Shown: positions 1-37,694 of the stretch, one piece after another
Position numbering within the stretch: position 1 is the first letter of the stretch
Layout: each line of letters begins with the position of its first letter
Sequence record: MT150133.1
DNA from: Enterobacteria phage vB_EcoM_IME540
DNA: 64,000 nt
Direction: 5' to 3' (one strand)
Position numbers and translations under genes: made by a program
The notes under the pieces: generated by a model
What the model saw: the letters and a program-made list of their open reading frames with translations, nothing else
What the model was told of the DNA's origin: nothing
Database searches by the model: none

Positions 1-609
1 TACGGCCTGGCCAGTTTCCTTAGAAACATAAACTTCGCCAACTTTAGACTCAACCTTAGTATAAAGCTCGGCATCAATTTCAGGCATACCCTTAATATCT
101 TCAATATTAGTGCCACGACGTACTAAAAGAACATAGGTATGTTTTCCGGTGAATTGGTACATGGCATCAACAACTTTAAACTTACCACCAGTACGAGCCA
201 TAGCTAAACGAGCTAATACACGCTGAACAGTAGGACCCTTACCTTTCATTTTCTTGGTAGGGAACCGGAAAAGAACTGCATCCATTTTAAGTTTGTTTAC
301 TTGTTCGTATACAGTATCAAAAATGGTATTCAGCGTACCAAGTGGGTCAGAACCTAACCCACCTTTCAACTCGGCTGGGCTACCCTTAGCAGACAAACTC
401 ATCAAAATAACATGAACATATTTGTCTCCGGGCTTAACCATTTTAATAGCGTCTCCTTGAGACGCATAAGATACCATACGAGCAACCAGGTTATCATTAC
501 CTGGCGCTTTAATAGAGAAAATCTGTGGGATACCGGAACCTGGTTTAAGATTTATTACTGGATAGTTTTTATCGGAATCACTATCAAAAACCTCGTTTAA
601 ATTTTCCAT
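1..609 (-). CDS. Alt-family ADP-ribosyltransferase paralog, N-terminal 203 codons; gene continues beyond window start
   Basis: ATG at 609 on minus strand, in frame to position 1; my translation (MENLNEVFDSD...KMKGKGP...YQFTGKHTY...) is clearly homologous to the N-terminus of the adjacent 694-aa Alt-like ORF; nucleotide similarity of 1-200 to 2100-2300. Confidence 0.7.
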   Translation of the reverse strand, partial: MENLNEVFDSDSDKNYPVINLKPGSGIPQIFSIKAPGNDNLVARMVSYASQGDAIKMVKPGDKYVHVILMSLSAKGSPAELKGGLGSDPLGTLNTIFDTVYEQVNKLKMDAVLFRFPTKKMKGKGPTVQRVLARLAMARTGGKFKVVDAMYQFTGKHTYVLLVRRGTNIEDIKGMPEIDAELYTKVESKVGEVYVSKETGQAV

Positions 610-612
610 TAT

Positions 613-2697
613 TTACCCTTGGATGAATTTTTCTGGGATGTCATAGAGGTCTATGCATGAAGCCAAAAGAGGCAGTACATCAAACCGTGTAGATTTAACA
701 AATGAATCAAAAGATACGGGGCTTTCGGAAGTATCGAAGTCATCTTGATATACGACCAACTCGCCGGTTTCCATTAGTACGTCACCATCATATACCACAG
801 ATTCTTGAAGCTCATCTGTTGTCATAACTTCAGCTTGGATGAGTTTTGTATTACTAGATGTTGTTCCATCATTATTAGAAGCATCTGTTATTTTATTAAC
901 TTTGACCATTAATCCACGCGGTAGAATAACTTCGGCTTCAGTTGCTATTCCGAGATTTCCTGGATATACGACATTAACTTTATGAGCCCCATCAATGGCC
1001 CATCCTATTTGAACCTTAACGTAATCGGGATTTTCCTTATACGCTCTTATTTCATTAGGATTAATAGTTATTCCTTCTTCATTTTTATCAACTGTCAATT
1101 CGTTGCGAACTTCCGGTTCTAAAAGACCAATACCAGCGTGCGTAACACCAAAACGTCCGAAAATTATAGGAGTTAAAGAAGTAGATACAAAATTTCTAAA
1201 ATAAAACACTTTATTTTTAACTAGTGCTTCGTATATAGGAGCAGTCATACTCTGGGCACGATAAACTGTAATGCCTTCCGGTATACGGTCACCATTTTCA
1301 AAAGCTGAATCTAAATTATTTACAGCGGATTCGATATCTTTTTCGCTCATAACCTCATAGTTCTGAGGATTATAACGTCCTAAAAGAAGATTATTTATGT
1401 CTGTATATCCTGAACCACAATATTCTCTGATGCCGCGCTTTTGTGATGGGGTATATTTAGAGCCCTCACGAGCAATAGTAATATCGACCATAATACCACC
1501 ACCTACACCAGCAAAACTATACACACGTTTTTTAATGAACTTAGTCTTGGCTGCTTTCCACTTGGACTCGGTTAATTCATTCCAGACGTCGTCAGGTTGG
1601 CCTTTACGAGTTCTGTTATGGATAGCCAGCCACTCGCCTTTATATTCTTCGAAAATGGTATTAATGGTAGAGGCATATTTTTCCAGGGCTTTAACAGATG
1701 TCAAAGGTTCATTTTTGATAGCTGTAAGAATTTTCTCTTTAATTTTCTCTTGGATTTCACCAATACCGTGAAGTGGGAACAATTTATAGTCGTAATGCAA
1801 TTCTTCAGCAGTGCCTTCAGCTACTATATTAGCAACCTTATTTTTAGCCGCAGGAGAATTGTTATTAGTGACCATTTCCTGGGCCTCAGGGATTAATGGA
1901 ACTGTTGCCGGTTTATTAAAATCTACTGCAGTAGCTTCATATTTCTTAAACAGCTCACTTTCATTACGATAAGATTCTAACGATTGACTTGCCGCAATAG
2001 CACGTCGAGAAATCTTAGTCTTGGTTATAACCATTTTATCAGTGCGACGTTCTTCAACCTTAGCAATACTACCGGCGATAGCAGTTTCTTTAGTAACCTG
2101 CACGCCTTCTTTTTTAGAAATATAAACTTCACCGACATCAGAATCTACCTTAGTATACAATTCAGCATTAATTCCAGGCATACCTTTGATATCTTCTATA
2201 TCAGCTTGTTTACGAACTACCAGGATGTAAGTATGTTTACCGGTAAATTGGTACATAGCCGGAACTACTTTAAAACGTCCACCTGTTTTCTGTGCTACCA
2301 AACGTTGGATAATCCGTTGAACGATAGGGCCTTGACCTTTCATTTTCTTAGTAGGGAAACGGAACATCACGGCATCCATACGAAGCTTTTTAACTTGGTC
2401 ATAAACCACATCAAAAATAGTATTAATCGCATCTACGGGAGTAGGGCCTAGGCCACCTTTAAGTTCGGCAGGCGAACCTTTAGCTGAAAGGCTCATAAGG
2501 ATAACGTGGGCATATTTATCACCCATCTTAACCTGTTTAATAGCATCACCTTCAGAAGCGTAGGATACCATACGCGCCACTAATTGGGATTCTGCGTCAC
2601 CAATCTTCCAAATCTGGGGTACTTTAAGTTTTGGGTTCAAGTTTACTGTAGGCAGTGTGCCTTCGGACTCAAACACTTCATTTAATTGTTCGGTCAT
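613..2697 (-). CDS. alt: Alt-like ADP-ribosyltransferase (virion-packaged ART of T4)
   Basis: 694-aa ORF; length and position next to ligase match T4 Alt (682 aa); C-terminal region has ART-like motifs (YRAQS...FVSTSL); identification from memory of T4 Alt. Confidence 0.75.
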   Translation of the reverse strand: MTEQLNEVFESEGTLPTVNLNPKLKVPQIWKIGDAESQLVARMVSYASEGDAIKQVKMGDKYAHVILMSLSAKGSPAELKGGLGPTPVDAINTIFDVVYDQVKKLRMDAVMFRFPTKKMKGQGPIVQRIIQRLVAQKTGGRFKVVPAMYQFTGKHTYILVVRKQADIEDIKGMPGINAELYTKVDSDVGEVYISKKEGVQVTKETAIAGSIAKVEERRTDKMVITKTKISRRAIAASQSLESYRNESELFKKYEATAVDFNKPATVPLIPEAQEMVTNNNSPAAKNKVANIVAEGTAEELHYDYKLFPLHGIGEIQEKIKEKILTAIKNEPLTSVKALEKYASTINTIFEEYKGEWLAIHNRTRKGQPDDVWNELTESKWKAAKTKFIKKRVYSFAGVGGGIMVDITIAREGSKYTPSQKRGIREYCGSGYTDINNLLLGRYNPQNYEVMSEKDIESAVNNLDSAFENGDRIPEGITVYRAQSMTAPIYEALVKNKVFYFRNFVSTSLTPIIFGRFGVTHAGIGLLEPEVRNELTVDKNEEGITINPNEIRAYKENPDYVKVQIGWAIDGAHKVNVVYPGNLGIATEAEVILPRGLMVKVNKITDASNNDGTTSSNTKLIQAEVMTTDELQESVVYDGDVLMETGELVVYQDDFDTSESPVSFDSFVKSTRFDVLPLLASCIDLYDIPEKFIQG

Positions 2698-2719
2698 AAT
2701 AATTCCTCTTTAATAACCT

Positions 2720-2727
2720 TATTTATG
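2720..2727 (-). promoter_or_regulatory. possible late promoter variant for alt
   Basis: CATAAATA on minus strand ~25 nt upstream of alt ATG. Confidence 0.3.
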
Positions 2728-2733
2728 CCAGAA

Positions 2734-2749
2734 AAGGCCCGAAGGCCTT
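2734..2749 (-). terminator. UUCG tetraloop hairpin
   Basis: AAGGCC-UUCG-GGCCUU on minus strand between small ORF and alt; weak U tract. Confidence 0.45.
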
Positions 2750-2751
2750 TA

Positions 2752-2934
2752 TTAAAGTACTAACAGCGTACGGTACACTTCAAATTTAGGACCCTTTTCA
2801 TAGCGGTCGAAATTATCTTTAAAATCAGCGAACGCGATTTCATTTTCAAATTCAAGGACAATTTGGGACACTGCAGTGGAGACATCCCCACCTTCTTTAT
2901 ATCCAATAACCACGGTTTCTAAATAAGCTTTCAT
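2752..2934 (-). CDS. hypothetical small protein
   Basis: ORF track 2752..2976; start trimmed to ATG at 2934, directly after the ligase stop; start uncertain. Confidence 0.3.
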   Translation of the reverse strand: MKAYLETVVIGYKEGGDVSTAVSQIVLEFENEIAFADFKDNFDRYEKGPKFEVYRTLLVL

Positions 2935-2935
2935 A

Positions 2936-4459
2936 TTATAGACCAGTTTGAGACCAATCACCGAATACATCTTCAAATGTATCAGCTTCTGTTTTATCGA
3001 AACGCCAACCTTTAATGATTGGAAGGAAAATACCTACAGTATCAGTACGTCCTTTAGAATGAACCCAACCATTACATTCACAGTCAGCAATACGTCCAAT
3101 CAACTTACCTTCACGAGCTTGTTTCATAAGAAGTTCACGGTCTAAATCAGGACGGTCTTCCAATGGAATCAATACCTTTTTACCTGATTTATCTTTCTTA
3201 TGGGTAGTATCTTTAAAGCCTGAACCACAGTCACTTGTAATTCGACGACAACGTGATACTAACTCAACACCACCTAGTTTGTTAGGGTCCTTCGAGTGTT
3301 CATAATAACCTACCACTTCTAAAGCGATATCGATTACTTCTTTGAACTTGATAAGATTCTTAGAACGGCGGTTTTCCCAGTAGGAGTCCATGTTCTTAAG
3401 GATAATGCCTTCCAGACCTTGGTCGACATATTTCTTATAAACGACTTTAGCTTCTTCAAGATTATTAACCCACTGGTTTTCGATAGCTTCAACACGCGTT
3501 GTGCCATGCAATACGACATTATGAGCCACCATAAGTTCTAAGGCTGTAAAGCGTACATCATACTTATCGCCTTTAATTTTGCCTTCAGAATACACGACAT
3601 CCAGTGGGACATAATCCCATGCCTGTAATACCATACCAGCGGCTTCAGTAGCCGAAATAGTTCCTTGAAGAGCCTTATTAGCCAATCCATTTGACGTAGA
3701 ACGATCGGCGACAGTTTGGAATTCCTTAGCCTTACTTAATTCAGGAAGTTCCTCGTCAAACATACTAAACAAATCATTAGATGCTTTAGGTTCTACCTTA
3801 GGAGTATGGTAAACTAATTCGCCATCAATCATAACGCCATTAGGATGGCGTTGTCGAGCTTCTTCGGTCATGGCCATTAATTCAGCCGCCAAAAGATTAA
3901 GCCCTTGATATTCGTTACCACCACGAGTAAGGAATGTCACACCATCGTTACGAACTTCGGCAAAACAACGAGCACCATCAGCTTTTAATTGAGCAAACGC
4001 TGGCCATTTAATATTTTTCTTAATCAAAGCTTCATCATAAGAACTCGCCAACATCTGCGGTTGTTCAGGGATTAAACCTTTCCAAACCTTGTTAGCAATA
4101 GAAATCGATGCACCACATTCAAGGTCGCGCATCATTACACGACGTAATACCTCGGCATCCGGGGCCTTAGCATCAGCAATGATTTGAGCCAGTTCTTCAA
4201 TAGCCGCATTACCCGTAATCTTACGTGTGGCTAATGTGAATTCAGCGAAATCAAGAAGGTCTTCAAGAGTAATCATACCAAAGGATTGAGATGTAAATCC
4301 AGGTTCTGGCCACTTTTTAATACCGTAGTTCAGACGACGGGTATAAGCCATACGATAAACACGTTTCAGAAGCTCATTGTCCTTTTCACGAGCAATAATG
4401 GCTTCTTTAGCTTTAGTAGAATCAATAGCAGCAATTTCGTTTAAAATATCTAAAATCAT
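2936..4459 (-). CDS. 30: ATP-dependent DNA ligase
   Basis: Strong resemblance to T4 gp30 (MILDILNEIA..., KADGARC adenylation motif); start set at MILD ATG rather than the upstream ORF-track start. Confidence 0.92.
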   Translation of the reverse strand: MILDILNEIAAIDSTKAKEAIIAREKDNELLKRVYRMAYTRRLNYGIKKWPEPGFTSQSFGMITLEDLLDFAEFTLATRKITGNAAIEELAQIIADAKAPDAEVLRRVMMRDLECGASISIANKVWKGLIPEQPQMLASSYDEALIKKNIKWPAFAQLKADGARCFAEVRNDGVTFLTRGGNEYQGLNLLAAELMAMTEEARQRHPNGVMIDGELVYHTPKVEPKASNDLFSMFDEELPELSKAKEFQTVADRSTSNGLANKALQGTISATEAAGMVLQAWDYVPLDVVYSEGKIKGDKYDVRFTALELMVAHNVVLHGTTRVEAIENQWVNNLEEAKVVYKKYVDQGLEGIILKNMDSYWENRRSKNLIKFKEVIDIALEVVGYYEHSKDPNKLGGVELVSRCRRITSDCGSGFKDTTHKKDKSGKKVLIPLEDRPDLDRELLMKQAREGKLIGRIADCECNGWVHSKGRTDTVGIFLPIIKGWRFDKTEADTFEDVFGDWSQTGL

Positions 4460-4469
4460 AATCACCTCA

Positions 4470-4748
4470 TTAGTCATGGATTCTATTATAAGCCACATCA
4501 GCCAAAAGCAAGTCTAATCGCTTATGATAAGAGAACACAAATCTCATTCGCCCATCAGATTTGAACTTGGACATAAAGTGGACATAAATGAATCCCTGTT
4601 CGACGCATTCGCGCCAAACAGGATGGTCTTTAGCCGGATTTACATCAAATGAGTAATCATGATTCACATGACGAATAAACTGGTTTACATGACCATAATC
4701 CATTGTAGTGGTAGGACCATAGTCTGAAATTGTATGAACTACAAACAT
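4470..4748 (-). CDS. hypothetical protein
   Basis: ORF track; start set to ATG at 4748, one base after the stop of the upstream HAD-like gene. Confidence 0.4.
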   Translation of the reverse strand: MFVVHTISDYGPTTTMDYGHVNQFIRHVNHDYSFDVNPAKDHPVWRECVEQGFIYVHFMSKFKSDGRMRFVFSYHKRLDLLLADVAYNRIHD

Positions 4749-23105: not shown

Positions 23106-24011
23106 TTATAGACCAGCTAACAGGTCGTCCAGACCATCGTCATCAGAAGGACTTACTGACGGCTCAGGAGTAGTGGAACGAGTCGGTGTAGATGGTTTAG
23201 AATCATATGCATCAAGGTCTGCACTGAATGCGTCCAGGTCATCACCAATCTTATCAGCGGCTGCAGAAGCTTTAGCGGCAGCACCACCAAGAGCAGCTGT
23301 ACCAACAACTTTCTTAAACTTGGCTTCGTTAGTTTCGAATGATTTGAAATCGAGCAGTTTAGAAAGGTCGTGCATTTCTTCCATCAATTTAGCTTGGTAA
23401 GCTTCATCATTGATGTTAGGAATTTCAGACTGACCCATGAATTTGGAATCGTCGTAGTTCTTGAAGTCGCCAACTTTCTTAGATTTCAGTACGAAGTTCG
23501 CACCATCAAACGGACATGTTACGTCAACCGGCACTTCACCAATATCAGTATCAACTTCAACCATCTGGTTGATTTTATCCATAATTTTCTGACCGAAACG
23601 GAATTTAAACACTTTACCTTCGTTAGCAGGTACTGCACTATCCTTAATAACAAGGATGTTAGCCCAGAAGGAAGTTTTACGTTTCATCAGTTTGTATTCG
23701 GCATTATTAGTATTAAAGGTATCATTCTGGTTCATGTATTTACATACAGGACATGAATCGAAATCACCATGAGTAGACGTACATGATTCGATATACCACT
23801 GACCATTTTTCTTAAAACCATGGTTAACAAGCTTAACGAATGGGGATGGATTAGCTTCGTTTTTCGAAGGAAGGAATCGAATAACTGCGGTTCCTACGCC
23901 ATTGTCATCTTTCAATTTCCATTCGGATTTGTCATCAGACGAGAAAGAAGAGCCACCTTTCATTGCAGACAGTTGAGCAGCAAGTTCAGCAGGATTACGG
24001 CGTTTAAACAT
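23106..24011 (-). CDS. 32: single-stranded DNA-binding protein
   Basis: Near-colinear with T4 gp32 (MFKRR...AVIRFLPSK...acidic C-terminus); start at MFKRR. Confidence 0.92.
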
Positions 24012-24060
24012 AGACATATTATTTACCTTATTTGATATATTTAATAAATTTATTAACAGT
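24012..24060 (-). promoter_or_regulatory. gene 32 5' leader, candidate autoregulatory translational operator
   Basis: A/U-rich unstructured leader (TTAATAAATTTATTAAATATATCAAATAAGGTAAATAAT before ATG) like the T4 gene 32 operator. Confidence 0.4.
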
Positions 24061-24115
24061 TGTTGTTATCACGTTTACCTTGATAACTAGGTTTTGAAGA
24101 TGAAGTAATTATATA

Positions 24116-24733
24116 TCACTTCGAATAAAGCATTTTTAACTTAATGAATTCAGGGTCATCATTAGGAACCCAACCCTCATTAAATTGTTTAATCATACTC
24201 TTTGATGTAGTTTCACTAACATTTATACCAGAGTTAATGAGACGCCTCCATCCACAAGCTCTTCCACTAGAATTAATTATACAATAATTAGTATAAGCAA
24301 TATCACTAAGCATCCAATCTAAAGGGTTTGCTCTAGAAGTTTTCCAAGGACGGTAATCGGGTTGATTCATATAGTTAGCAGCTTTCATATGGGCTCTAAC
24401 TTCAGGACGTTTGGCTGGGTGAGTGCATCCAAAGACTCCAAATCCGCCACCGGCATAAACCAAATTAAAATAATCATCATTATCTCTAGCTTGAACTTCC
24501 AATTGTTCTGAACGTTCAATATTAATAACAATATCAAATGGCGTTATAGCCAAAATTTCAACAATAGGTTTTTCTTCTTCGATGGCCTCTTTAAATCTTG
24601 ATTGCTCGCAAGAGGTCCAATACTCTTTACCTTTACAGTCAATAATCACGCCATTTTCAAAAGTACAATTAGTTTTAGAACCTATGTACGAAAACGGCTT
24701 AATATTATTAGCCTGACGATTAAGCCAAGTCAT
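24116..24733 (-). CDS. unassigned protein between genes 59 and 32
   Basis: ORF track 24116..24760 (track start is TTG); first ATG at 24733; no Shine-Dalgarno seen; no family recognised by eye. Confidence 0.5.
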   Translation of the reverse strand: MTWLNRQANNIKPFSYIGSKTNCTFENGVIIDCKGKEYWTSCEQSRFKEAIEEEKPIVEILAITPFDIVINIERSEQLEVQARDNDDYFNLVYAGGGFGVFGCTHPAKRPEVRAHMKAANYMNQPDYRPWKTSRANPLDWMLSDIAYTNYCIINSSGRACGWRRLINSGINVSETTSKSMIKQFNEGWVPNDDPEFIKLKMLYSK

Positions 24734-24747
24734 TTTATAAACTATAT

Positions 24748-25401
24748 TCAAAATTTGCAACCCTTAATTGTTTCGATGAACAATTTACGAGCTTCTAAAT
24801 TATCAATTATAAGAATTTTCTTATAAGCATTTAATTTAGTCGAATACTTAGACCACACTAAATCGTTGGTCTGTTCATCATGTTTATCAATTATATCCAT
24901 AAATGAATCAAGCAAAATAAACGTTTCGAATGAAATAACATTCGATTGAAGGAGCTTAAAAATATAGCTCGAGTTAACTTTTTTATTATAATCAAAAATT
25001 TCAGAAAGCGCTTGAACTTCCACTTTCTTACTAAAATAATAAATGTTTTTGATATCATCCTCAAAAACTTGTTTTATTCTTTTAAGTCTACCGATATATT
25101 CTCGGTAAAAGACTAAGGCGTCAGCATCACTGATGTCGCCAATCCATGCGTCTTGGTTAGCCACCAAGTTACTCATGAAGATAAGAGCAAGCTCTTTCAA
25201 AGTGTATTTATCACTCAATTTCTCAAAGAAATATTTGTCACGACGTTTTTGATAAGCCGTATCAGAGATTCGCATGACCCAGTTATATTTGATAACGTCG
25301 TATTTGGCGTTGAAGTGATGCTTAAGTTGCAAATATAAAGAATACACGCTCTTACCATTCACCATACGATTATTGTTTGGCGGCATACGAATCTTAATCA
25401 T
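24748..25401 (-). CDS. 59: helicase loader / gp59
   Basis: 217 aa, near-colinear with T4 gp59 (MIKIRMP...YDVIKYNW...ANQDAWIGDISDADALVFYREY). Confidence 0.9.
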   Translation of the reverse strand: MIKIRMPPNNNRMVNGKSVYSLYLQLKHHFNAKYDVIKYNWVMRISDTAYQKRRDKYFFEKLSDKYTLKELALIFMSNLVANQDAWIGDISDADALVFYREYIGRLKRIKQVFEDDIKNIYYFSKKVEVQALSEIFDYNKKVNSSYIFKLLQSNVISFETFILLDSFMDIIDKHDEQTNDLVWSKYSTKLNAYKKILIIDNLEARKLFIETIKGCKF

Positions 25402-26080
25402 GATATTTCCATCCAGTCCACTTATCGCTTTTTAATCTGTAACTAACCAAACTATTGGATATTCCGAATTTGGAAGCCACTTCAGAACATGAATCATAAC
25501 ATATTCCATCGATAAGCAATTTCTTTTTGTATAAGTCTTTAAAAGATTGTGGCCTAGGTCCTGTATTTGCCTTAAGAAGAGCAGCTCTTGTACTATCAGG
25601 CATTTTAGGTCCTTTCTTACCTGCTCTGGATTTACTTAGAGCTTTTCGATGTGCATCGGTAAGATTAATACCTTTATTTGGTGAAGGTATATTTCTAAGT
25701 CTTCTTGTTATAGAAACTTTTTTACAAACACTATCAGGTCGTGGAATACCTAATTTAGATTTACTTATAGCAAGTTTATGTTCTTCAGATATTTTCTTAC
25801 CAAGTCCACCTTTACCGCCAACAACCAAATTATAAGTATTCGGGTCTGAAACAAATTCTTCGTTAACGAGTTCTCGCTCTTTATCAAAGGCCTCCTCTTG
25901 GGAATCCATAACAAAGAGAATTTCTTTTTCAAAATTCTCTATACCATGTTTTAATATAGCCTTCTTAATTAACTTACCTGAACCCATATAATGGTCATGG
26001 CGTTTGGTTTCTTTATGCACACCGATATAAATTTTACCATTCAATTTATTGGTTACTTTATATACGGTGTGTTTAATCAT
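25394..26080 (-). CDS. GIY-YIG homing endonuclease (Seg/I-TevI-like)
   Basis: VYKVTN...GKIYIGV GIY-YIG core, NUMOD3-like repeats, C-terminal region resembling the I-TevI DNA-binding domain; ATGA overlap with gene 33 stop. Confidence 0.8.
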   Translation of the reverse strand: MIKHTVYKVTNKLNGKIYIGVHKETKRHDHYMGSGKLIKKAILKHGIENFEKEILFVMDSQEEAFDKERELVNEEFVSDPNTYNLVVGGKGGLGKKISEEHKLAISKSKLGIPRPDSVCKKVSITRRLRNIPSPNKGINLTDAHRKALSKSRAGKKGPKMPDSTRAALLKANTGPRPQSFKDLYKKKLLIDGICYDSCSEVASKFGISNSLVSYRLKSDKWTGWKYHD

Positions 26081-27694: not shown

Positions 27695-30600
27695 ATGGCC
27701 GATATTTTAAAACCTGCCTTCCGTGCTACATCCGGACTCGATGCTGCAGGCGAGAAAGTTATCAATGTTGCCAAAGCCGATTACAATGTATTAGACGACG
27801 GCGTCAACGTTGAATTCTTTATAGATGAGAACACCATCCAGGCGTACGACGAGACGCGCGGATATAAGAAAGGGTTTGCCGTAATCCATGACCAACGTAT
27901 CTGGGTTGCTCAACGTGATATCAATGCTCCAGCAGGAACCTTTGTACCTGGTTATTGGACTGCTACCCGTACTGACCCTAAATGGATTACCGTAGCATCT
28001 CCTACACGCCAACTGGCTTCTGGTGAATATATTGCAGTGGATTCTGCTGCTAGCTTTACTACATTTACCCTGCCTCCGAACCCTACTGATGGTGATACCA
28101 TCGTAATCAAGGATATTGGTGGCCGTGTAGGTTATAATGAAATTAAGCTCCAGTCTAGTTCTGCTCCAGGTGGTGGTAATCAGAAAATTGTCCGTTTCGG
28201 TAACCAGTTCACTGAGACCTTAATTACGAAGCCTTTTTCCTATAATATGATTATCTTTGCCAACCGTTTATGGCATTTCTGGGAAGCAGCTAATGAAGAA
28301 CGTGGTATTCGTGTAGAACCGAACACCGCCCAGTTCCAATCACAAGCGGGTGATAACGTTTTACGTCGTTATACTTCGGGTGCAGTAATTAAGTTTACTC
28401 TTCCTAAGTATGCGAACCAAGGTGATATTATTAAAACCGTTGATATCGATGGTTTAGGAAGTAAATTCCACTTAATCGTTGAAACATTTGATGCGTCATC
28501 TTCATTAGGTAAGCCTGGCCAGCATAGCATGGAATTCCGTACTTCAGGTGATGGATTCTTTGTTTATAACTCTACCGAAAAATTATGGTATGTTTGGGAC
28601 GGCGACCGACAAACTCGTTTACGTGTAATTCGTGACGATGTTGAACTCTTGGCTAACGAAAGTGTTATTGTTTTTGGTCCTAATAACACGACACCCCAGA
28701 CAATTAATATCACATTACCTACCGGTGTGGCCCAGGGTGATGTCGTTAAGATTGCTCTGAACTATCTCCGTAAAGCTCAGACAGTAAATATTAAGGCTGC
28801 CGTAGGAGATAAGATTGCTTCATCCGTCCAGTTGCTTCAATTCCCTAAACGTTCAGAATATCCACCAGAAACCGAATGGGTATTGAATGACGTACTGACC
28901 TTTAATGGCAATATAAGTTATACTCCGGTTATTGAACTGAGTTATATCGAAGACACCACTACAGGTGGCAAATATTGGGTTGTTGCCCAGAACGTTCCTA
29001 CTATAGAACGTGTGGATTCTAAAGATGATTTAACTCGTGCTCGTTTAGGTGTTATTGCCCTTGCGTCCCAGACTCAAGCAAACGTTGACCATGAAAATAA
29101 TCCTGAAAAAGAACTGGCAATTACTCCGCAGACTTTAGCTAATCGTGTGGCGACTGAATCTCGTCGTGGTATTGCTCGTATTGCTACTACTGCTCAGGTG
29201 AACCAGGACACAACCTTCGCATTCCAGGACGATTTGATTATTTCTCCTAAGAAATTAAACGAACGTACTGCAACCGAAACTCGTCGTGGTGTTGCTGAAA
29301 TTGCTACGCAAGTTGAAACTGATGCTGGTATAGATGATACTACAATCATCACTCCTAAGAAGCTACAAGCGCGCCAGGGTTCGGAAAGTCTTTCAGGTAT
29401 TGTAACATATACCTCTACTGTAGGAACCACTCCTGCGACTGCTAGGGACACCGTAGGTACTAACGTTTATAATAAGAACGTAGGCAATTTGGTTATTTCT
29501 CCTAAAGCTCTTGACCAGTATAAAGCTACCCAAGTTCAACAGGGTACGGTATATCTTTCTAACCAATCTGAAGTTAACGCAGGTCAATCGGCAAGTGGAT
29601 TTGCCAACAGTGCTGTTTCTCCTGAAACATTACATGCTCGTGTGGCTCTTGATACTCGTACAGGGTTAATTGAAATTGCTACGCAAACAGAGACTGATAC
29701 TGGAACAGATTATACTCGTGCGGTAACGCCTAAGACGTTAAATGATAGGAAAGCTACGGAAGGATTGACTGGTATTGCTAGAATTGCAACACAGGTAGAA
29801 TTTGATGCAGGTGTATTAGATAATGTTATTTCAACTCCGTTGAAAATTAAAACAAGATTTAATGATACCGCTAGAACTTCTGTCTCAGCAGCCAGTGGTT
29901 TGGTTGAATCAGGAACCTTATGGAACCATTATACACTAGATATTAGAGAAGCAAATGAGACTCAACGTGGTACTGCTCGCCTGGCGACCCAGACCGAAGT
30001 CAACGTTGGTACTGATGACAAAACCATCATCACTCCTTTGAAATTACACTCTAAAAAATCTACTGAAAGTTCTGAAGGTATTATTCGTGTTGCAACCAAT
30101 ACCGAAACAACCGCAGGAACTTCTAAAGTTTTGGCTGTAAGCCCTTCTGGTTTAAAATATGTAGTACAGACCGAAACTACTTGGGAAGCTACTGCACTTC
30201 GTCGTGGATTTGTTAAATTAACCGAAGGTGCTTTAACCCATTCAGGAAATAAAGTTACTGGTTCTGGTGTTAAATTCAACTCAGGTACAGGCCTTTATGA
30301 GAACGATGATACTGTTCTGAACGCAGCGAACTATCCTAAAACGGGTTATGCGGTTTCATCTTACGAGATGAATAAAACTTTACAGAACTTTTTACCTATA
30401 AATGCTACGGCTGTGAACTCCGAGAAATTGGATGGCCTAGATTCACTCCAGTTCATTCGTAGAGACGTCGATCAAACGGTTAATGGTTCTTTAACCCTGA
30501 CCAAACAATTGAACCTGGCAGCTCCTCTAGTGTCTTCTAGTACTGCTAATATTACCGGCAATACTATTTTAGGTTCTCTGGAAGTAACAGGAAATTCTAC

Positions 30601-31747
30601 TTTTAAAAATGATGTATCTGTTAGCTCAGGTAAATCTATTAAATTTGTAGGACCCCAGTCTGGCGCAGGTTCTTGGGATTCTCAGGCAACTAATTTTGCA
30701 CCTATTTTCTCTGAGATAAATTCTACTGTTGATGCTAGTTATCACCCTATTGTTAAGCAACGATTAGGGCAGGGTACTTTCTCTTTAGGTACTTTAAATG
30801 ACGGTTCCGGCGATTTTAAAATCCATCATATTAGCAGTGCTTCTGGTGCTTTAAAATCTTCCTACTGGACCTTTAATACGACCGGTGATTTTGCTGTTAA
30901 TAGTGGTTCTATTAGTATTTCTAAGAATGCTAATATCACAGGTATAACCACTTCTAACGGTGTTTCTACAACCACACTAAATGCTTCTGCTCTGTCTTCG
31001 TTGCAAAACGTAACTACTTCAGGTACTATCGTTTCCACCGGACAGGTATCGGCAAATAATGGTTTGGTTGCTCAAAAATACGTCCGTTCTGTTGGTGTTA
31101 AACCTACATTAGCATCCCAGGCCCCTACTGCAGAAACAGTTGGCTTCTGGTCTGTTGATATCAATGATTCGGCCACATTTAACCTGTTCCCTGGTTATTG
31201 GACGATGAAAACGAAACGCCAGGTTAATATCGATACGGTCCAAACTAAACCTGCCGGTGTTTCTGATGAGATATGGAATGCTTCTGGTTGGTTGACAGAA
31301 ACAGGTGCATTTAGTTCTCCGGCTATTCGTTATCGTAACGAAGACGGTAGTTTTGGTGACGAAGTTCTCGGTACGTCAGGTCAGAAATTACGTGGTACTT
31401 GGTTTGATTATTCTGTTCGTGATAAGGAAGTTAAATATCCTGGTACGTTAACCCAGTTTGGTAATACATTGGATTCATGTTATCAGGATTGGGTGTGCTA
31501 TCCTACAGGATTGAATGGTGGTACTATTCGTTATACACGTACCTGGCAGAAAAATAAAAACGCATGGACTACGTTCTCTATGGTCTATACGGCAGATAAC
31601 CCTCCTTCTGCGGAAGAGGTTGGTGCATTGCCTGCTGATAACGCTACAATGGGTAACATTACAATCCTTGATTGGTTACGTATTGGTAACGTTCGTATTA
31701 TTCCTGACCCGGTCACTAAATCCGTTAAGTTTGAGTGGATTGAATAA
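27695..31747 (+). CDS. 34: long tail fibre proximal subunit
   Basis: 1350 aa; colinear with T4 gp34 including conserved N- and C-termini. Confidence 0.95.
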   Translation: MADILKPAFRATSGLDAAGEKVINVAKADYNVLDDGVNVEFFIDENTIQAYDETRGYKKGFAVIHDQRIWVAQRDINAPAGTFVPGYWTATRTDPKWITVASPTRQLASGEYIAVDSAASFTTFTLPPNPTDGDTIVIKDIGGRVGYNEIKLQSSSAPGGGNQKIVRFGNQFTETLITKPFSYNMIIFANRLWHFWEAANEERGIRVEPNTAQFQSQAGDNVLRRYTSGAVIKFTLPKYANQGDIIKTVDIDGLGSKFHLIVETFDASSSLGKPGQHSMEFRTSGDGFFVYNSTEKLWYVWDGDRQTRLRVIRDDVELLANESVIVFGPNNTTPQTINITLPTGVAQGDVVKIALNYLRKAQTVNIKAAVGDKIASSVQLLQFPKRSEYPPETEWVLNDVLTFNGNISYTPVIELSYIEDTTTGGKYWVVAQNVPTIERVDSKDDLTRARLGVIALASQTQANVDHENNPEKELAITPQTLANRVATESRRGIARIATTAQVNQDTTFAFQDDLIISPKKLNERTATETRRGVAEIATQVETDAGIDDTTIITPKKLQARQGSESLSGIVTYTSTVGTTPATARDTVGTNVYNKNVGNLVISPKALDQYKATQVQQGTVYLSNQSEVNAGQSASGFANSAVSPETLHARVALDTRTGLIEIATQTETDTGTDYTRAVTPKTLNDRKATEGLTGIARIATQVEFDAGVLDNVISTPLKIKTRFNDTARTSVSAASGLVESGTLWNHYTLDIREANETQRGTARLATQTEVNVGTDDKTIITPLKLHSKKSTESSEGIIRVATNTETTAGTSKVLAVSPSGLKYVVQTETTWEATALRRGFVKLTEGALTHSGNKVTGSGVKFNSGTGLYENDDTVLNAANYPKTGYAVSSYEMNKTLQNFLPINATAVNSEKLDGLDSLQFIRRDVDQTVNGSLTLTKQLNLAAPLVSSSTANITGNTILGSLEVTGNSTFKNDVSVSSGKSIKFVGPQSGAGSWDSQATNFAPIFSEINSTVDASYHPIVKQRLGQGTFSLGTLNDGSGDFKIHHISSASGALKSSYWTFNTTGDFAVNSGSISISKNANITGITTSNGVSTTTLNASALSSLQNVTTSGTIVSTGQVSANNGLVAQKYVRSVGVKPTLASQAPTAETVGFWSVDINDSATFNLFPGYWTMKTKRQVNIDTVQTKPAGVSDEIWNASGWLTETGAFSSPAIRYRNEDGSFGDEVLGTSGQKLRGTWFDYSVRDKEVKYPGTLTQFGNTLDSCYQDWVCYPTGLNGGTIRYTRTWQKNKNAWTTFSMVYTADNPPSAEEVGALPADNATMGNITILDWLRIGNVRIIPDPVTKSVKFEWIE

Positions 31748-31755
31748 GAGGTATT

Positions 31756-32877
31756 ATGGAAAGATTTATGGCAGAATTTGGACAAGGATATGTCCAGGTT
31801 CCTACATTATCTGAAAACAATGCTGTAAGGTATAAACTTAGTATAGCGGGTAGTTGTACTAAGTCTACCACAAAAGCATATGTTAAATTTCAAGATGGGA
31901 ACTTCGGTTCCCAGAATTTTCAAAATGGATTAAACCTTATAGAAATTGATGTTAGTGCTGAACCTAAAATAGTGGCTAACAAAACTTATAGTTTTACAAA
32001 AGATTTTGATGTTATTTCTGAAGCTTTTATAACGTATATAAATTCTATACCGGCCAATAGAATAGTTTGTTTAGTATCTTCTGGTAGATTAAATGCTTCA
32101 CAAAAACTTATCGATTGGTTCCGTGCAGCAGGAAGTACCGCATTCCCGACTAAATGGTTAATAGACCGGTTTGAGCCATCTTATTCTGCATTTTATGTTT
32201 CAGGAAGGAATGCTATAGTAATGGAACATGTGCTTTATAATGATGGGGTGCTTGTCGAAGATGTTTCTACTCCATTAGAAGTGGTATTTGATGATATCAG
32301 CGACGTCGGTGGTACAGGATATCCTGTCAGAATTGTTGAAGACGAAAGCACTTATCTAAGCAATGAGGGAGATGAAATTAAGCGATTTCCTACCGAATCT
32401 CCTACCACCCCATTAACAGATTATAACATGAAGCCAGGTGAATTCTTTTACCTTAAGTTTCAATTAATGTGTGACCAAGCTTTAAAAGACGTCGGGACCT
32501 CTCAGATGTCTGTTAGATTTTTTAATGCCTCAGGTGCTTTAACCGGGACAGTTAATATGGACGTTCCTTCCAACGTTCCTGCTGGTGCATGGATGACATT
32601 TGAACGGGTAGTAATGGTTCCTGAAGGTACTACAGACTTTACCCTTTATGCCAGAAAAACAGCTTCGGCCGGACAAGGTGGAGTTCGAAATGTTATGTTC
32701 GGTGAGATATCTGAATCAGAACCTCAGCCAAAACCCGCTGAATTTGGTGTTAACGGTATTCGTATGAACTTTGGTACGGAAACTAAAAATATGGGTACTA
32801 CCATAGCCCAGCTATATGATAAAACAGGCACTAAACCCGGTCAGGTTTGGGTCGCTGAATTTAGAGAAAAATATTAA
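31756..32877 (+). CDS. 35: long tail fibre hinge protein
   Basis: 373 aa, position and size of T4 gp35. Confidence 0.8.
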   Translation: MERFMAEFGQGYVQVPTLSENNAVRYKLSIAGSCTKSTTKAYVKFQDGNFGSQNFQNGLNLIEIDVSAEPKIVANKTYSFTKDFDVISEAFITYINSIPANRIVCLVSSGRLNASQKLIDWFRAAGSTAFPTKWLIDRFEPSYSAFYVSGRNAIVMEHVLYNDGVLVEDVSTPLEVVFDDISDVGGTGYPVRIVEDESTYLSNEGDEIKRFPTESPTTPLTDYNMKPGEFFYLKFQLMCDQALKDVGTSQMSVRFFNASGALTGTVNMDVPSNVPAGAWMTFERVVMVPEGTTDFTLYARKTASAGQGGVRNVMFGEISESEPQPKPAEFGVNGIRMNFGTETKNMGTTIAQLYDKTGTKPGQVWVAEFREKY

Positions 32878-32905
32878 GGAACCTTCGGGTTCCTTTTTCG
32901 TTTTT
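32878..32905 (+). terminator. rho-independent terminator after gene 35
   Basis: GGAACC-UUCG-GGUUCC followed by UUUUUCGUUUUU. Confidence 0.75.
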
Positions 32906-32910
32906 ACGGC

Positions 32911-32924
32911 CATAAATATATAAA
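32911..32924 (+). promoter_or_regulatory. possible late promoter variant for genes 36-37-38
   Basis: CATAAATATATAAA between gene 35 terminator and gene 36; not an exact TATAAATA. Confidence 0.3.
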
Positions 32925-32951
32925 AGGCTATAACTCCCAAAGGAAACTCAA

Positions 32952-33599
32952 ATGGCAGATTTAAAATTAGGTTCTACAGCAGGAGGTTCGGTATTATGGC
33001 ACCAAGGTAATTTTCCCTTAACGCCTGTATCAAACGACCTTCTTTACAAAACATATAAAGTTTACACTGAATATAATAAACCACAAGCCGCTGATAACGA
33101 CTTTGTTTCAAAAGCAAACGGCGGCAATTATAAGAATAACGTGTATTTTGAAAAAGGTTTGACCTTTAATGATACCAATGGATATGGTATTAAATTAGGA
33201 GCAAGAACTGGCGGAGCCCCGTTCACAGCTTCTTTCCGTATTAAAGGTGCTTTTGGATATGAAACGGAAGATGGTACACCGTTCGTTATATTTGACCCAA
33301 GTACAGTAGTGGGTGCTAAACGCCTCACAGTAATGGGTGATTCATTATTCCGCCAAGTATATGACGAATCAGGTCGTGTATTCAGCCCAGGCAACACCCC
33401 TACTAAAGCCCAAGTAGGATTATCGTTAGTAGATAACGCAAAACAGGTCCAAATAAATAATACTAACATGCAAACAATGACCGGAGTACTTGCTGCTCCT
33501 AACTTTATTTCGCTGAATCCGGCCTCTGACGCAGGACACGTTCCTCGTTTTGACCAGATTGTTATTAAAGATTCTATTCAAGATTTTGGTTATTATTAA
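32952..33599 (+). CDS. 36: long tail fibre distal connector
   Basis: 215 aa; conserved N-terminus and C-terminus (HVPRFDQIVIKDS.QDFGYY) as in T4 gp36. Confidence 0.9.
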   Translation: MADLKLGSTAGGSVLWHQGNFPLTPVSNDLLYKTYKVYTEYNKPQAADNDFVSKANGGNYKNNVYFEKGLTFNDTNGYGIKLGARTGGAPFTASFRIKGAFGYETEDGTPFVIFDPSTVVGAKRLTVMGDSLFRQVYDESGRVFSPGNTPTKAQVGLSLVDNAKQVQINNTNMQTMTGVLAAPNFISLNPASDAGHVPRFDQIVIKDSIQDFGYY

Positions 33600-33607
33600 G
33601 AGGCATT

Positions 33608-36600
33608 ATGGCTACTTTAAAGCAAATCCAATTTAAAAGAAGTAAAGTAGCCGGTGTACGTCCGACACCGGCCCAGTTGGCTGAAGGCGAACTGGCTATT
33701 AACTTAAAGGACCGATTACTTTTTACTAAAGACGATACCGGAGCGATTATCGACCTTGGCTTTGCTAAAGGTGGTAATATTGACGGCAATGTTATTCATA
33801 CCGGTAACTACAATCAAACCGGTGATTATACCCTAAATGGTACCTTTACCCAAACAGGTGATTTTAATTTAACCGGTATTGCTCGCGTAACTCGTGATAT
33901 TATTGCTGCAGGTCAGATAATGACTGAAGGCGGAGAACTTATTTCTAAGAGTGCTTCAACTTCTCATTTGAGATTCTTTGACGGTGCATCACGTGAACGT
34001 GGTATTATCTTTTCTCCTAATAATGCAGGGTTGACAACTCAGGTAGTTAATATCCGTGTTCAAGATTATGCCGCTGGTAGCGAAAGCACTTATGCATTTT
34101 CAGGCAATGGTCAATTTACTTCACCTGAAGTATCGGCATGGAAATCTATTTCATCCCCACAAATTCTGACCGATAAAGTTATTACAAATGGTAAGAAAGC
34201 TGGCGATTATGATATATCTTCATTAGCAAATAATAATTCTGCCACGGATAAAAACTATTTGCGCGTTGTACGTACCGACCCGGCGTCTGCAATGCTCCAT
34301 GAAATTTGTGAAAATAACGGTATCAGTTGGTATTCTGGTTCAACCCCTACTGATTATATGTTGTCTTTTGCTTATTCTGGCGGTTTTCAAGCTGGACATT
34401 CGATTGCAGTAGGTATGGAATCAGGGCCTATGACATATTCAGCCTTAGGTAAAGGTTCTATTGCTTTGGGTGATAATGATACCGGATTAAAATGGCATCA
34501 AGATGGATATTATTTCAGCGTTAATAACGGCACAAGAACTTTACTGTACGGCCCTGCAGAAACAACTAGCCTAAGAAAATTTGTGGCCGGTTATTCTGTA
34601 AACGGTACCGATTTAACCACTCCTCCGTCGGAAAACTATGCATTAGCCACTGTTGTTACTTACCATGATAATAACGCGTATGGTGATGGCCAAACTCTTT
34701 TAGGTTATTATCAAGGTGGTAATTATCACCACTATTTCCGTGGTAAGGGTACTACAAACGTTAACACTGCAGGTGGTCTGTTAGTTACTCCTGGTAATAT
34801 TGATGTTGTTGGTGGTTCGGTTAATATTGACGGCCGCAACAATGCTTCTACTCTGTTTTTCAGAGGAAATACTACAGGAAATAGTTCAGTTGATAACATG
34901 TCTATCAACGTTTGGGGTAACACCTTTAGTACAGTAGATGGCTTTCGTAAAAACGTGATGGAAATATCTGATGATATTAGTTGGATGCATTATATCCAGC
35001 GCAATAAAGATAATACCATTGAGGCTGTATTAAATGGGCAACAAACTATTAACGAAAATCTTGTTGTTAAAAAAGATATTTTGGTTGATAGAGCGGTCCA
35101 CACCGCTGGTGAAATTACTACAAATGCTGTTAACGGGCTCCGCATCTGGAACAACGATTACGGGGTCATTTTTAGACGTTCAGAAGGAAGTCTTCACATT
35201 ATTCCTACTGCATTTGGTGAAGGTAAAAATGGTGATATCGGACCACTTCGTCCATTTAGTTTGGCTTTAGATACCGGTAAGGTTGTTATTCCTGACTTGG
35301 ATTTGAGTTATGCTTCTTTTGCAGCAAACGGCTATATTAAATTCGGTGGACATGGTGCAGGTGCAGGCGGTTACGATATTCAATATGCACAAGCAGCTCC
35401 TGTTTTCCAAGAAATTGATGATGATGCTATAAACAAATATTATCCTATTGTTAAACAGAAGTTTTTAAACAGCAAAGCTGTTTGGTCTTTAGGTACTGAA
35501 ATTAATTCAGGTACATTTGTTTTACACCATATCAAAGAAGATGGTTCACAAGGCCATACATCAAGATTTAACGCTGATGGTACAGTTAACTTTCCGGATA
35601 ACGTTCTGGTCGATGGTGGTATTAACATGAAAGGCGTGATGACTTTTGACGCCGGACATTTAGGATCACAAGATTATTTTAAATTTAACCATTTGGGTGA
35701 TAGTAATAATGCTCGTGATAACATCATCCAGTTAGAAGATAGTCAAGGCGCTCATTTTTCCACTGAACGTACTTTAGCGACAGGTGCAATTAAAACTCGT
35801 TTCTTTGGCGAAACATCCACTGATGGTACATTATACCTAAATCAGATGAATAATAGCTCTGAACGATTCTCTATTAATAATTGGGGAAATTCAGAAGTTG
35901 GTCGCGCGGCAGTGATGGAAGTCAAAGATTCCAAAGGTTATCACTTCTATACTGAACGCAGGACAGATAACAGTTTGAATTTTGATGTTGGTGGCAATTT
36001 TACTGCGCATGGACCTTCCGGAATAACCATCAAAAACTCTGCTGGCGCTCGCCACATCTGGTTTAAAGATGATAGCGAATCGGAAAAGGCTGTTATCTGG
36101 GCTACAGATGAGGGTATTTTACATATACGAAATAATTATGGGGGTTCATTTAGTCATCACTTCCGGGGTGCAATGATTCTAGCGGAAGAGCGTGTTCCAT
36201 ATAATAGTGAATACGCTCTTATCCGTGGTAATATTTCCGGTGGTGCATGGGTAGACTGGCGAGATCGTCCGGCTGGATTGTTGGTAGACTGTCAGGACTC
36301 ACGAAATCAAGCATATAACATTTGGAAAGCTACTCATTGGGGCGAACAGCACATTGCGGCGATGGGTGTTCATGCCGGCGGTGGTAATCCTCATGTTGTA
36401 TTGCATGTGGGTGGGAGTGATTACGCATTTGGATTTAACGGTGATTTTACTGCTGGTGCTGCTGTATATTGTAACGACGTTTATATTCGTTCTGACCGTC
36501 GTCTGAAAATTAATGTTGAAGACTACGAAGAGAATGCGGTGGATAAGGTAAATAAACTCAAAGTTAAAACCTATGATAAAGTTAAATCTCTTTCTGACCG

Positions 36601-36844
36601 CGAAGTTATCGGCCATGAGATTGGTATTATCGCACAGGATTTGCAAGAAGTATTACCGGAAGCTGTTAGCACTTCTAGTGTCGGATCTCAGGATAACCCA
36701 GAAGAAATTTTAACAATTTCTAACTCCGCTGTGAATGCTCTTTTAATTAGGGCCATTCAGGAAATGAGTGAAGAAATTAAAGAATTGAAAACGCCTTTCT
36801 TCACTAAAATTGCTCGCAAAATTGGTAAATACTTTAAATTCTAA
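33608..36844 (+). CDS. 37: long tail fibre distal subunit with C-terminal intramolecular-chaperone-like domain
   Basis: 1078 aa; conserved gp37 N-terminus; C-terminal ~120 aa beginning SDRRLKINVEDY resembles self-cleaving chaperone domains of phage fibres. Confidence 0.9.
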   Translation: MATLKQIQFKRSKVAGVRPTPAQLAEGELAINLKDRLLFTKDDTGAIIDLGFAKGGNIDGNVIHTGNYNQTGDYTLNGTFTQTGDFNLTGIARVTRDIIAAGQIMTEGGELISKSASTSHLRFFDGASRERGIIFSPNNAGLTTQVVNIRVQDYAAGSESTYAFSGNGQFTSPEVSAWKSISSPQILTDKVITNGKKAGDYDISSLANNNSATDKNYLRVVRTDPASAMLHEICENNGISWYSGSTPTDYMLSFAYSGGFQAGHSIAVGMESGPMTYSALGKGSIALGDNDTGLKWHQDGYYFSVNNGTRTLLYGPAETTSLRKFVAGYSVNGTDLTTPPSENYALATVVTYHDNNAYGDGQTLLGYYQGGNYHHYFRGKGTTNVNTAGGLLVTPGNIDVVGGSVNIDGRNNASTLFFRGNTTGNSSVDNMSINVWGNTFSTVDGFRKNVMEISDDISWMHYIQRNKDNTIEAVLNGQQTINENLVVKKDILVDRAVHTAGEITTNAVNGLRIWNNDYGVIFRRSEGSLHIIPTAFGEGKNGDIGPLRPFSLALDTGKVVIPDLDLSYASFAANGYIKFGGHGAGAGGYDIQYAQAAPVFQEIDDDAINKYYPIVKQKFLNSKAVWSLGTEINSGTFVLHHIKEDGSQGHTSRFNADGTVNFPDNVLVDGGINMKGVMTFDAGHLGSQDYFKFNHLGDSNNARDNIIQLEDSQGAHFSTERTLATGAIKTRFFGETSTDGTLYLNQMNNSSERFSINNWGNSEVGRAAVMEVKDSKGYHFYTERRTDNSLNFDVGGNFTAHGPSGITIKNSAGARHIWFKDDSESEKAVIWATDEGILHIRNNYGGSFSHHFRGAMILAEERVPYNSEYALIRGNISGGAWVDWRDRPAGLLVDCQDSRNQAYNIWKATHWGEQHIAAMGVHAGGGNPHVVLHVGGSDYAFGFNGDFTAGAAVYCNDVYIRSDRRLKINVEDYEENAVDKVNKLKVKTYDKVKSLSDREVIGHEIGIIAQDLQEVLPEAVSTSSVGSQDNPEEILTISNSAVNALLIRAIQEMSEEIKELKTPFFTKIARKIGKYFKF

Positions 36845-36848
36845 TAAC

Positions 36849-36865
36849 AAGGGGCAATGCCCCTT
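36849..36865 (+). promoter_or_regulatory. hairpin between genes 37 and 38
   Basis: AAGGGG-CAAUG-CCCCUU followed by GGAG and gene 38 ATG. Confidence 0.4.
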
Positions 36866-36877
36866 TGGAGATAAATT

Positions 36878-37681: not shown

Positions 37682-37686
37682 GAAAT

Positions 37687-37694
37687 TATAAATA
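37687..37694 (+). promoter_or_regulatory. late promoter for holin t
   Basis: Exact TATAAATA 19 nt upstream of ATG at 37713. Confidence 0.7.

Follow-up and report, generated by a model that had tools for sequence, protein, structure and literature searches.

Tandem Alt-family ADP-ribosyltransferase genes with a mosaic of catalytic cores in Enterobacteria phage vB_EcoM_IME540

Introduction

Alt is a textbook example of an enzyme carried in the phage head that reprograms the host as soon as infection begins. The present study concerns a tandem pair of Alt-family genes, here named altA and altB, located at the start of a 64,000-nucleotide (nt) stretch of Enterobacteria phage vB_EcoM_IME540 (sequence record MT150133.1); the whole stretch is referred to as the window. 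The closest described system is Alt of phage T4 (gpAlt, P12726), a capsid-packaged and injected arginine mono-ADP-ribosyltransferase. Mass spectrometry of T4 heads showed approximately 40 copies per head and cuts after ITE-6 and LTE-619, the latter removing 63 residues from the C-terminus (Ali et al. 2017, PMC5694885). The targets of T4 Alt include RNA polymerase alpha at R265, MazF at R84, EF-Tu, and some two dozen others, at least 27 in all (PMC8120803). In addition, Alt was detected in the particles of an RB69-like phage (PMC6563131).

Full and partial alt duplications have been described in T4-like phages, namely, ORF187c of 44RR, which is a full-length duplicate, alt.-1/-2 of T4, and ORF183c of RB49 (Nolan et al. 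2006, PMC1524935). For phage 6phi13 (2026), two Alt paralogs were interpreted in the same manner as proposed here, with divergence after duplication broadening the ADP-ribosylation targets (PMC13600099). Phage T2 (RefSeq) also carries two full-length tandem Alt genes, T2_203 and T2_202, of 697 and 685 amino acids (aa), with the same 3-nt junction as in the window. Within Dhakavirus, tandems are annotated as alt/alt' in Bp7 and as alta/altb in JS98, JS10, and IME08, and three copies are annotated in WG01, QL01, MX01, and AnYang; the WG01-type phages differ from the window in having a third, more divergent copy upstream. Of the Bp7 genes, alt is 98% and alt' 95% identical to its counterpart in the pair of the window and of Escherichia phage vB_EcoM_FB, and both share the locus, orientation, and 3-nt junction of that pair. 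Thus, a tandem alt pair is an ordinary feature that is already annotated in relatives and in T2, with duplications published in 2006, and as a tandem the window adds no new biology.

The window pair resembles T4 Alt in its architecture, an N-terminal module (N-module) followed by an ADP-ribosyltransferase (ART) domain with an R-S-ExE site, and in its slot between ligase/alt.1 and alt.-3/gene 54. The same hairpin, a box at the same position, and both protease motifs also align. The ART domain of FB altB is approximately 80% identical to that of T4 Alt. However, the altA core is approximately 47–62% identical to T4 Alt, and both window N-modules are 44–47% identical to that of T4. Moreover, T4 has one intact alt and the relic alt.-1/alt.-2, whereas the window phage, with its second gene read from FB, has two intact genes. 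Taken together, the pair very probably forms a two-gene late Dhakavirus operon that encodes two virion-delivered Alt mono-ADP-ribosyltransferases of old lineages with cassette-swapped cores.

Organization of the gene pair

As given in the list of open reading frames (ORFs), altA occupies 613..2697 on the minus strand and comprises 694 aa and a TAA stop; it is a complete Alt-family ADP-ribosyltransferase gene with a T2-type catalytic core. The start of altB lies at 1..609 (minus strand), where the first 203 codons, translated with zero stops, run past the left window edge. At the junction (610..620, minus strand), direct reading of the sequence showed AAGGG at 620..616, the altA TAA at 615..613, a spacer at 612..610, and the altB ATG at 609..607. 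The AAGGG is Shine-Dalgarno-like and lies within the last altA codons, and it could serve altB. The 3-nt spacing is also found in T2, between alt and the second alt, and in T4, between alt and alt.-1; across the phages compared, junctions between alt copies measure 3–8 nt and hold no extra small ORFs. The coordinates, ORF lengths, and 3-nt spacing reported in the first-pass annotation of this DNA proved exact when compared with the ORF list, the sequence, and the translation. Its claim that the two adjacent genes have homologous N-termini was also confirmed, as 137 of 202 residues (68%) were identical by BLASTP (E 2e-94), which is far above chance.

The genomic slot of the pair is equally conserved. 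The DNA ligase gene (2936..4498, minus strand) and an alt.1 homolog (2752..2934, minus strand) precede altA, and the maps of FB, Bp7, T4, and T2 agree. The order common to T4 and T2 is ligase (gene 30), alt.1, the alt genes, alt.-3, and baseplate gene 54.

Integrity of the second gene

The part of altB beyond its 203 codons was read from the nearly identical FB genome and not from the window. Over its first 5 kb, the window shows an identity of 99.9% to FB, 98.2% to IME281, and 96.7% to Bp7 (Dhakavirus, Tevenvirinae). Over the first 4000 bases, the window and FB differ by one mismatch, which is synonymous, and the 203-aa N-terminus of altB is 100% identical to the FB_0198 protein. The FB altB forms a 683-aa ORF without interruption, with a T4-type core and all catalytic and protease motifs, and its Bp7 counterpart, annotated as alt' and adjoining alt, encodes 684 aa. 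In both FB and Bp7, an alt.-3 homolog and then baseplate genes come after altB, as in T4.

According to its annotation notes, T4 carries a relic at exactly this position, alt.-1/alt.-2, left from a second alt gene that has been broken up. This relic (locus L004, 3066..3451) is 95–96% identical to residues 1–116 of the second alt of T2 (locus L005, 4869..5216) and 56–62% identical to T4 alt, and it therefore derives from a T2_202-type copy and not from T4 alt. With 203 N-terminal altB codons visible in the window, the left copy might similarly be a decaying relic, leaving altA as the only functional gene. This is extremely unlikely, as the ORF is uninterrupted and retains every catalytic and protease motif in FB, which is practically identical here, and is of full length in Bp7. 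Furthermore, the ratio of nonsynonymous to synonymous changes (dN/dS) between FB and Bp7 altB is 0.05–0.14, and the codons inside the window contain no stop and match the FB protein fully. The possibility raised in the first-pass annotation, a left copy truncated by a frameshift or stop just outside the window, thus fails on the near-identity to FB and its intact ORF, and pseudogene status is ruled out by the FB and Bp7 genes, although these come from related genomes and not from the window itself.

A second alternative is that the unseen half of altB is not of the T4 type but of the core type found at the second position in most Dhakaviruses (JS98, IME08, WG01, and IME281), which is related to the second alt of T2. 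By megablast, FB altB matched at full length in 4 records only, against approximately 46 Dhakavirus records that matched nt 1–702 only and carried a different core, and the altB portion inside the window is precisely the segment common to both forms. However, the window differs from FB by a single base in 4000 and encodes an identical altB N-module, whereas IME281, JS98, and similar phages are only 88–92% identical over this segment. This alternative is therefore considered very unlikely, and the altB core is taken to be of the T4 type.

As a separate observation, the near-identity of the window and FB ends after approximately 8600. There are 18 mismatches before this point and denser mismatches beyond it in an ungapped comparison, which suggests an indel or mosaic segment in the 30.x region.

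Domains and catalytic residues

The Pfam ADPrib_exo_Tox profile matched altA residues 379–627 (E 3.8e-36), and the Alt proteins annotated in Bp7 and QL01 are 98–99% identical to altA. Both PF26846 and PF03496 were found in all 120 altA homologs listed. The ART domain belongs to the R-S-E (C3/VIP2) clade, as expected of the Alt family. Its catalytic residues in altA are R480, S505 (within VSTS), and E587-A-E589, which align with R478, S503, and E574-M-E576 of T4 Alt. The corresponding residues of altB, read from FB, are R480, S505, and E577-M-E579, and they also align with the T4 Alt equivalents. An alignment of the catalytic regions had been recommended with the first-pass annotation, and it showed R, S-T-S, and E-x-E to be conserved in every copy. 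The assignment of both genes to the Alt family is accordingly supported by the Alt N-module, the ADPrib_exo_Tox domain, the catalytic residues, and the retained protease motifs.

Between its terminal propeptides, altA is divided into three parts, all on the minus strand. The N-module (aa 8–242; 1972..2676) is shared with altB and is lineage-specific. The middle region (aa 243–404; 1486..1971), delimited by region-wise identities and by DNA breakpoints near nt 700–720, is all-helical in the model; it forms the 5' part of the exchangeable cassette and is the region most divergent between the paralogs, at approximately 37% aa identity. The ART catalytic domain (aa 405–632; 802..1485), with R480 at 1258..1260, S505 at 1183..1185, and E587-x-E589 at 931..939, ends at the predicted protease site after LQE632.

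A PDB sequence search for a solved Alt structure found none, and its sole matches were weak ones to ART components of binary toxins. Similarly, no fusion to MuF (Phage_Mu_F) or to a portal-associated domain was seen in altA, in which Pfam showed the ART domain only, so altA does not fall among MuF-type polyvalent effectors. Alt-family ARTs have been reported not to occur in genuine polyvalent proteins (PMC5512222).

Age of divergence and exchange of cassettes

Synonymous sites between altA and altB are saturated, with a proportion of synonymous differences (pS) of approximately 0.65–0.7 across the whole alignment and in every 30-codon window, and the longest exact tract common to the two genes is 18 nt. 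Thus, altA and altB are not recent duplicates. The same two measures exclude that the N-termini are similar owing to recent gene conversion.

The relationships of the two genes depend on the region compared. In the N-module, altA and altB share 70% of aa (dN 0.28), and either shares 44–47% with T4 Alt (dN 0.53–0.58). In the ART domain, altB and T4 Alt share approximately 80% (dN 0.15), and altA stands apart at approximately 61% (dN 0.33–0.34). The N-module and the ART domain thus point to conflicting trees. The conflict is resolved by the first alt of T2: its N-module and C-propeptide are 99% and 94% identical to those of T4 Alt, and its ART domain is 94% identical in aa to that of altA. The core of the second T2 alt belongs to a third type and has WG01 gene 199 as a relative, with 56% identity in the ART domain.

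A comparison of the DNA of T4 alt and T2 alt showed an identity of 95–100% over nt 1–720, of 27–80% in the part up to nt 1816, and mostly of 98% from there to the end, except for a 60-nt stretch at 78%. Window altA reaches an identity of 77–97% (mostly 90–97%) with T2 alt only at nt ~1195–1855, the ART segment, and is ~40–70% identical to it elsewhere. Between FB altB and WG01 gene 199, identity falls from 85–100% to 8–60% after nt ~700. The breakpoints of the cassette are therefore sharp, as DNA identity drops at nt ~700–720 and recovers at nt ~1816. An altA-type core at 80–90% identity was found in 316 phage records, mostly Tequatrovirus, and in VR5 an altA-type N-module and propeptide are joined to a T4-type core. 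The core at the second position varies as well, being of the T4 type in FB and Bp7 and of another type in JS98, WG01, and T2. In total, four core types (A, B, C, and D) were distinguished behind N-modules that track lineage and position.

A further Alt paralog, the third copy of WG01 (locus L003, 8703..10598, minus strand), encodes 631 aa with a core 33–37% identical to the others and a 30-aa C-propeptide. In WG01-type phages, this copy sits between alt.1 and altA, at the equivalent of window ~2698..2751, behind the same hairpin and CATAAATA box as altA.

These comparisons largely establish that the frame, consisting of the N-module and C-propeptide, follows the phage lineage and the locus position, and that the middle-plus-ART cassette, of at least four types, has been swapped by recombination between positions and genera. 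The window phage is accordingly read as carrying T2-type (altA) and T4-type (altB) cores side by side, the altB core being known via FB. The first-pass interpretation, a pair of diverged Alt genes for putatively packaged effectors, is supported in the main. The simple local event that it implied, a duplication followed by divergence, does not hold, as the cores represent old T2-type and T4-type lineages exchanged as cassettes. It should also be mentioned that the T4-Alt-like copy is the left one, altB, which lies mostly outside the window, and that the complete altA inside the window is the copy differing from T4 Alt.

The shared N-terminal module

The N-module of approximately 240 aa is present in altA and altB and corresponds to PF26846, the N-terminal part of phrog_802, of which positions 1–244 were matched with E 7.7e-124. 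When modelled alone, it gave a confident structure (predicted local distance difference test, pLDDT, 85.5; predicted template modelling score, pTM, 0.85). A word-indexed protein search with the N-module alone returned 2 matches only, and an exhaustive search of 1.84 billion representatives with a profile returned 70 clusters of Alt-like proteins, in which the module was always N-terminal and nearly always accompanied by an ART domain. In a tblastn census, the Alt N-module was found at 1822 places in 1201 phage records, which indicates that second alt copies or relics are common. Foldseek searches of viral models linked the module remotely (E 1e-4 to 1e-8) to large proteins of other myoviruses, which are uncharacterized and are matched in their N-terminal parts.

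Three divergent proteins, P0184 (1142 aa), P0187 (541 aa), and P0182 (485 aa), carry the Alt N-module with an undetectable or weak and partial ART and with long uncharacterized C-terminal regions. It is possible that these represent non-ART cargo on the Alt N-module. A general role of the module as a carrier for non-ART effectors was considered and found to be unsupported by sequence, as nearly all of the 70 clusters carry ART.

Because the N-module tracks the phage lineage and not the effector core, our best guess is that it helps to place the protein in the prohead and to eject it; it is thus presumed to be a virion-incorporation module. Its weak GNAT-like fold raises another explanation, in which the module is a second effector or ligand-binding domain and the Alt proteins are bifunctional injected effectors. 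However, no Pfam GNAT profile matched the N-module at E up to 10. In addition, motif A (Q/R-x-x-G-x-G/A) is fitted by K118-x-x-G121-x-G123 in Dhakavirus and T4, and among 67 family representatives G121 is 97% conserved and position 123 is variable, so only half of this would-be CoA-binding motif is conserved. A catalytic GNAT reading is weakened by both results, and we regard an enzymatic role of the module, and bifunctional effectors with it, as distinctly unlikely.

Predicted prohead maturation

At the motif level, (L/I)-x-E sequences occur at the columns aligned with the T4 cleavage sites, namely, LNE7 and LQE632 in altA and LNE6 and LNE622 in altB. The predicted N-terminal propeptide of altA (aa 1–7, MTEQLNE; 2677..2697, minus strand) would be cut between LNE7 and V, a site that aligns with ITE-6 of T4 and is disordered in the model. 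The predicted C-terminal propeptide (aa 633–694; 616..801, minus strand) would be removed in the prohead by analogy with LTE-619 of T4, as the motif is aligned and conserved. No variation at E7 of altA was seen among 34 homologs, and its conservation is 92% among the 67 family representatives, 64 of which have an N-terminal (L/I/V/M)-x-E. In the altA model, the only long low-confidence segments are residues 1–11 and 631–672 (pLDDT <50 at 631–672), and these coincide with the propeptides. The precursors have predicted masses of 77.3 kDa (altA) and 75.7 kDa (altB), and the mature proteins would have masses of ~69.5 and ~68.3 kDa.

Upstream signals and selection

The upstream signals of the operon lie at 2720..2750 on the minus strand and were identified by alignment with T4, Bp7, and WG01. 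They comprise a hairpin, AAAGGCC-TTCG-GGCCTTT (2750..2733), and a late-promoter-like box, CATAAATA (2727..2720), after which a GAGGA Shine-Dalgarno sequence (2708..2704) precedes altA. The hairpin is invariant between Dhakavirus and T4, with a folding energy of -12.3 kcal/mol (z -2.2), and a conserved terminator has been noted upstream of alt (Nolan 2006, PMC1524935). The CATAAATA box occupies the position of the T4 TATAAATA in the alignment and is one mismatch from the T4 late promoter consensus. Scans of the upstream region for sigma-70 promoters and terminators were uninformative, as they gave fewer matches than shuffled sequence. On these features, late co-transcription and coupled translation of altA and altB are plausible.

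Selection on the pair was evaluated from orthologues. The dN/dS of FB against Bp7 and WG01 was 0.0–0.14 for both genes, and purifying selection thus maintains altA and altB.

Proposed function

In the proposed mechanism, altA and altB would be transcribed late from the one promoter-like box 3' of the conserved hairpin, and altB would be translated from its ATG 3 nt past the altA stop. Following the example of T4 Alt, the precursors would enter the prohead core via the ~240-aa N-module, the terminal propeptides, or both. The prohead protease gp21 would then trim 6–7 N-terminal residues (between LNE and V) and ~61–62 C-terminal residues (between LQE and S in altA and between LNE and A in altB), as suggested by the T4 mass spectrometry. 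Both proteins would be injected with the DNA and would carry out NAD+-dependent arginine ADP-ribosylation of host proteins at the C3/VIP2-type R / S-T-S / E-x-E site. Finally, altA and altB would most likely modify partly different sets of host targets.

The last step was suggested by the regions in which the paralogs differ. The loop after S-T-S reads TPIIFGRFG in altA and YPNIFGTW in altB, the loop before E-x-E reads NLGIATEAE and GDLAPSNEME, respectively, and altA carries an insertion of 12–15 residues relative to altB. In C3- and iota-type ARTs, the loop preceding E-x-E, in the ADP-ribosylating turn-turn (ARTT) region, governs substrate choice. Together with the divergent middle region and the separate conservation of the core types, these differences make partly different target sets likely. 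The two injected enzymes thus most likely have overlapping but distinct sets of host targets.

The alternative is that altA and altB are redundant dosage copies that act on the same targets, chiefly RNA polymerase alpha, with the tandem raising the amount of injected enzyme. The catalytic residues and overall architecture are the same in both, and T4 Alt is promiscuous, with its at least 27 targets (PMC8120803), so overlap is likely. On the other hand, the divergence is old with saturated synonymous sites, the middle region and the loops on both sides of the active site are dissimilar, and altA has its insertion. Each core type is also separately conserved across genera at 80–94%, which argues for distinct selected functions. 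Packaged Alt moreover costs DNA capacity, as T4 alt- mutants package more DNA (PMC3012670), and this argues against pure redundancy. Accordingly, the dosage explanation is judged unlikely, and two enzymes with partly different targets are preferred.

Several points weigh against the interpretation of the pair as a late operon for two packaged and functionally distinct enzymes. The presence of altA and altB in virions, their cleavage, and their activity are all proposed from homology to T4 Alt, and the distinct substrate sets would rest only on sequence differences in the specificity-associated loops. For altB, the catalytic half is taken from FB because the window ends before it, and the full-length FB form of altB is confined to the few records mentioned above. 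Upstream of altA, the perfect canonical T4 late promoter octamer TATAAATA is absent, with CATAAATA in its place. The gain in packaged DNA in T4 alt- mutants also implies that two packaged paralogs carry a cost.

A broader reading, which is held tentatively and is possible but not probable, is that the T-even alt locus is a polymorphic injected-effector locus. Each core type might then be aimed at different host proteins, including defence proteins (MazF), and shape the host range, and the GNAT-like delivery module may act in binding a ligand or a partner in the capsid. If true, the combination of cores that a phage carries would shape which hosts it can take over.

Neighboring genes and other features of the window

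Directly downstream of the alt pair, at a position just left of the window, FB has an alt.-3 homolog (locus L001, 4210..4500). In T4, Alt.-3 mutants extended at the C-terminus evade defence by CmdTAC (PMC11618068). The alt locus is possibly a hotspot of genes that act in host interaction. On the other side, the alt.1 homolog between ligase and altA encodes 60 aa and gave a full-length match to Pfam PF24647, 'Phage blade protein' (E 4.5e-29). The start codon of the ligase gene is ambiguous: the annotations of FB and Bp7 give 507 and 513 aa, and the longest ORF encodes 520 aa and runs into the 30.1 homolog upstream.

Elsewhere, an ORF for a GIY-YIG / I-TevI-type homing endonuclease (Seg-like) was found at 25394..26080 (minus strand), upstream of the gp59 gene and within a block of low guanine-plus-cytosine (GC) content at 24000..26000 (GC 0.33). 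A 214-aa ORF between gp32 and gp59 (24116..24760) gave no Pfam match. The GC dip at 24000..26000 suggests mobile or acquired DNA. The only plus-strand block of the window, 27695..38366, contains ORFs of 1350, 373, 215, 1078, 267, and 217 aa and shows a positive GC skew, with a GC peak of 0.44 at 36–38 kb; from its position on the T4 gene map, it is presumably the long tail fiber gene cluster. Scans of the whole window for tRNA and Rfam families gave no match.

Comparison with known systems

It appears that two or three different Alt enzymes are injected by many phages of the T4 type, T2 and this Dhakavirus among them, which bears on host takeover, anti-defence, and candidates for phage therapy. 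Most of the biochemistry of Alt comes from T4, which lost its second copy. The value of the present analysis therefore lies in the mapping of core types, exchange junctions, and predicted maturation sites. The module-wise mosaic, with T2-type and T4-type cores apparently combined in one operon at defined junctions, is a modest comparative addition that was not found described in the literature available. The earlier accounts of alt duplication (PMC1524935) and of the two paralogs of 6phi13 (PMC13600099) differ from the present one in that neither includes a module-wise mosaic or T2-type versus T4-type cores.

Other ARTs differ more clearly from the window Alts. T4 ModA and ModB are small proteins that are expressed early, are not packaged, and have no Alt N-module. 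The C3, VIP2, iota-like, and Vis toxins likewise lack the Alt N-module and use secretion or binding components in place of a phage head.

A further analogy in organization is provided by polymorphic toxin systems, in which a conserved delivery part is combined with alternative effector cores by recombination at conserved junctions. However, the alt cassettes are all ARTs of one family, and the conserved frame also includes the C-propeptide. Neither cognate immunity genes nor orphan cassette arrays were seen beside the alt genes, which are flanked by alt.1 and alt.-3 whatever core type they carry. The alt locus thus resembles polymorphic toxin systems in its exchange of cores within a conserved delivery frame and differs from them in the single enzyme family of its cassettes.

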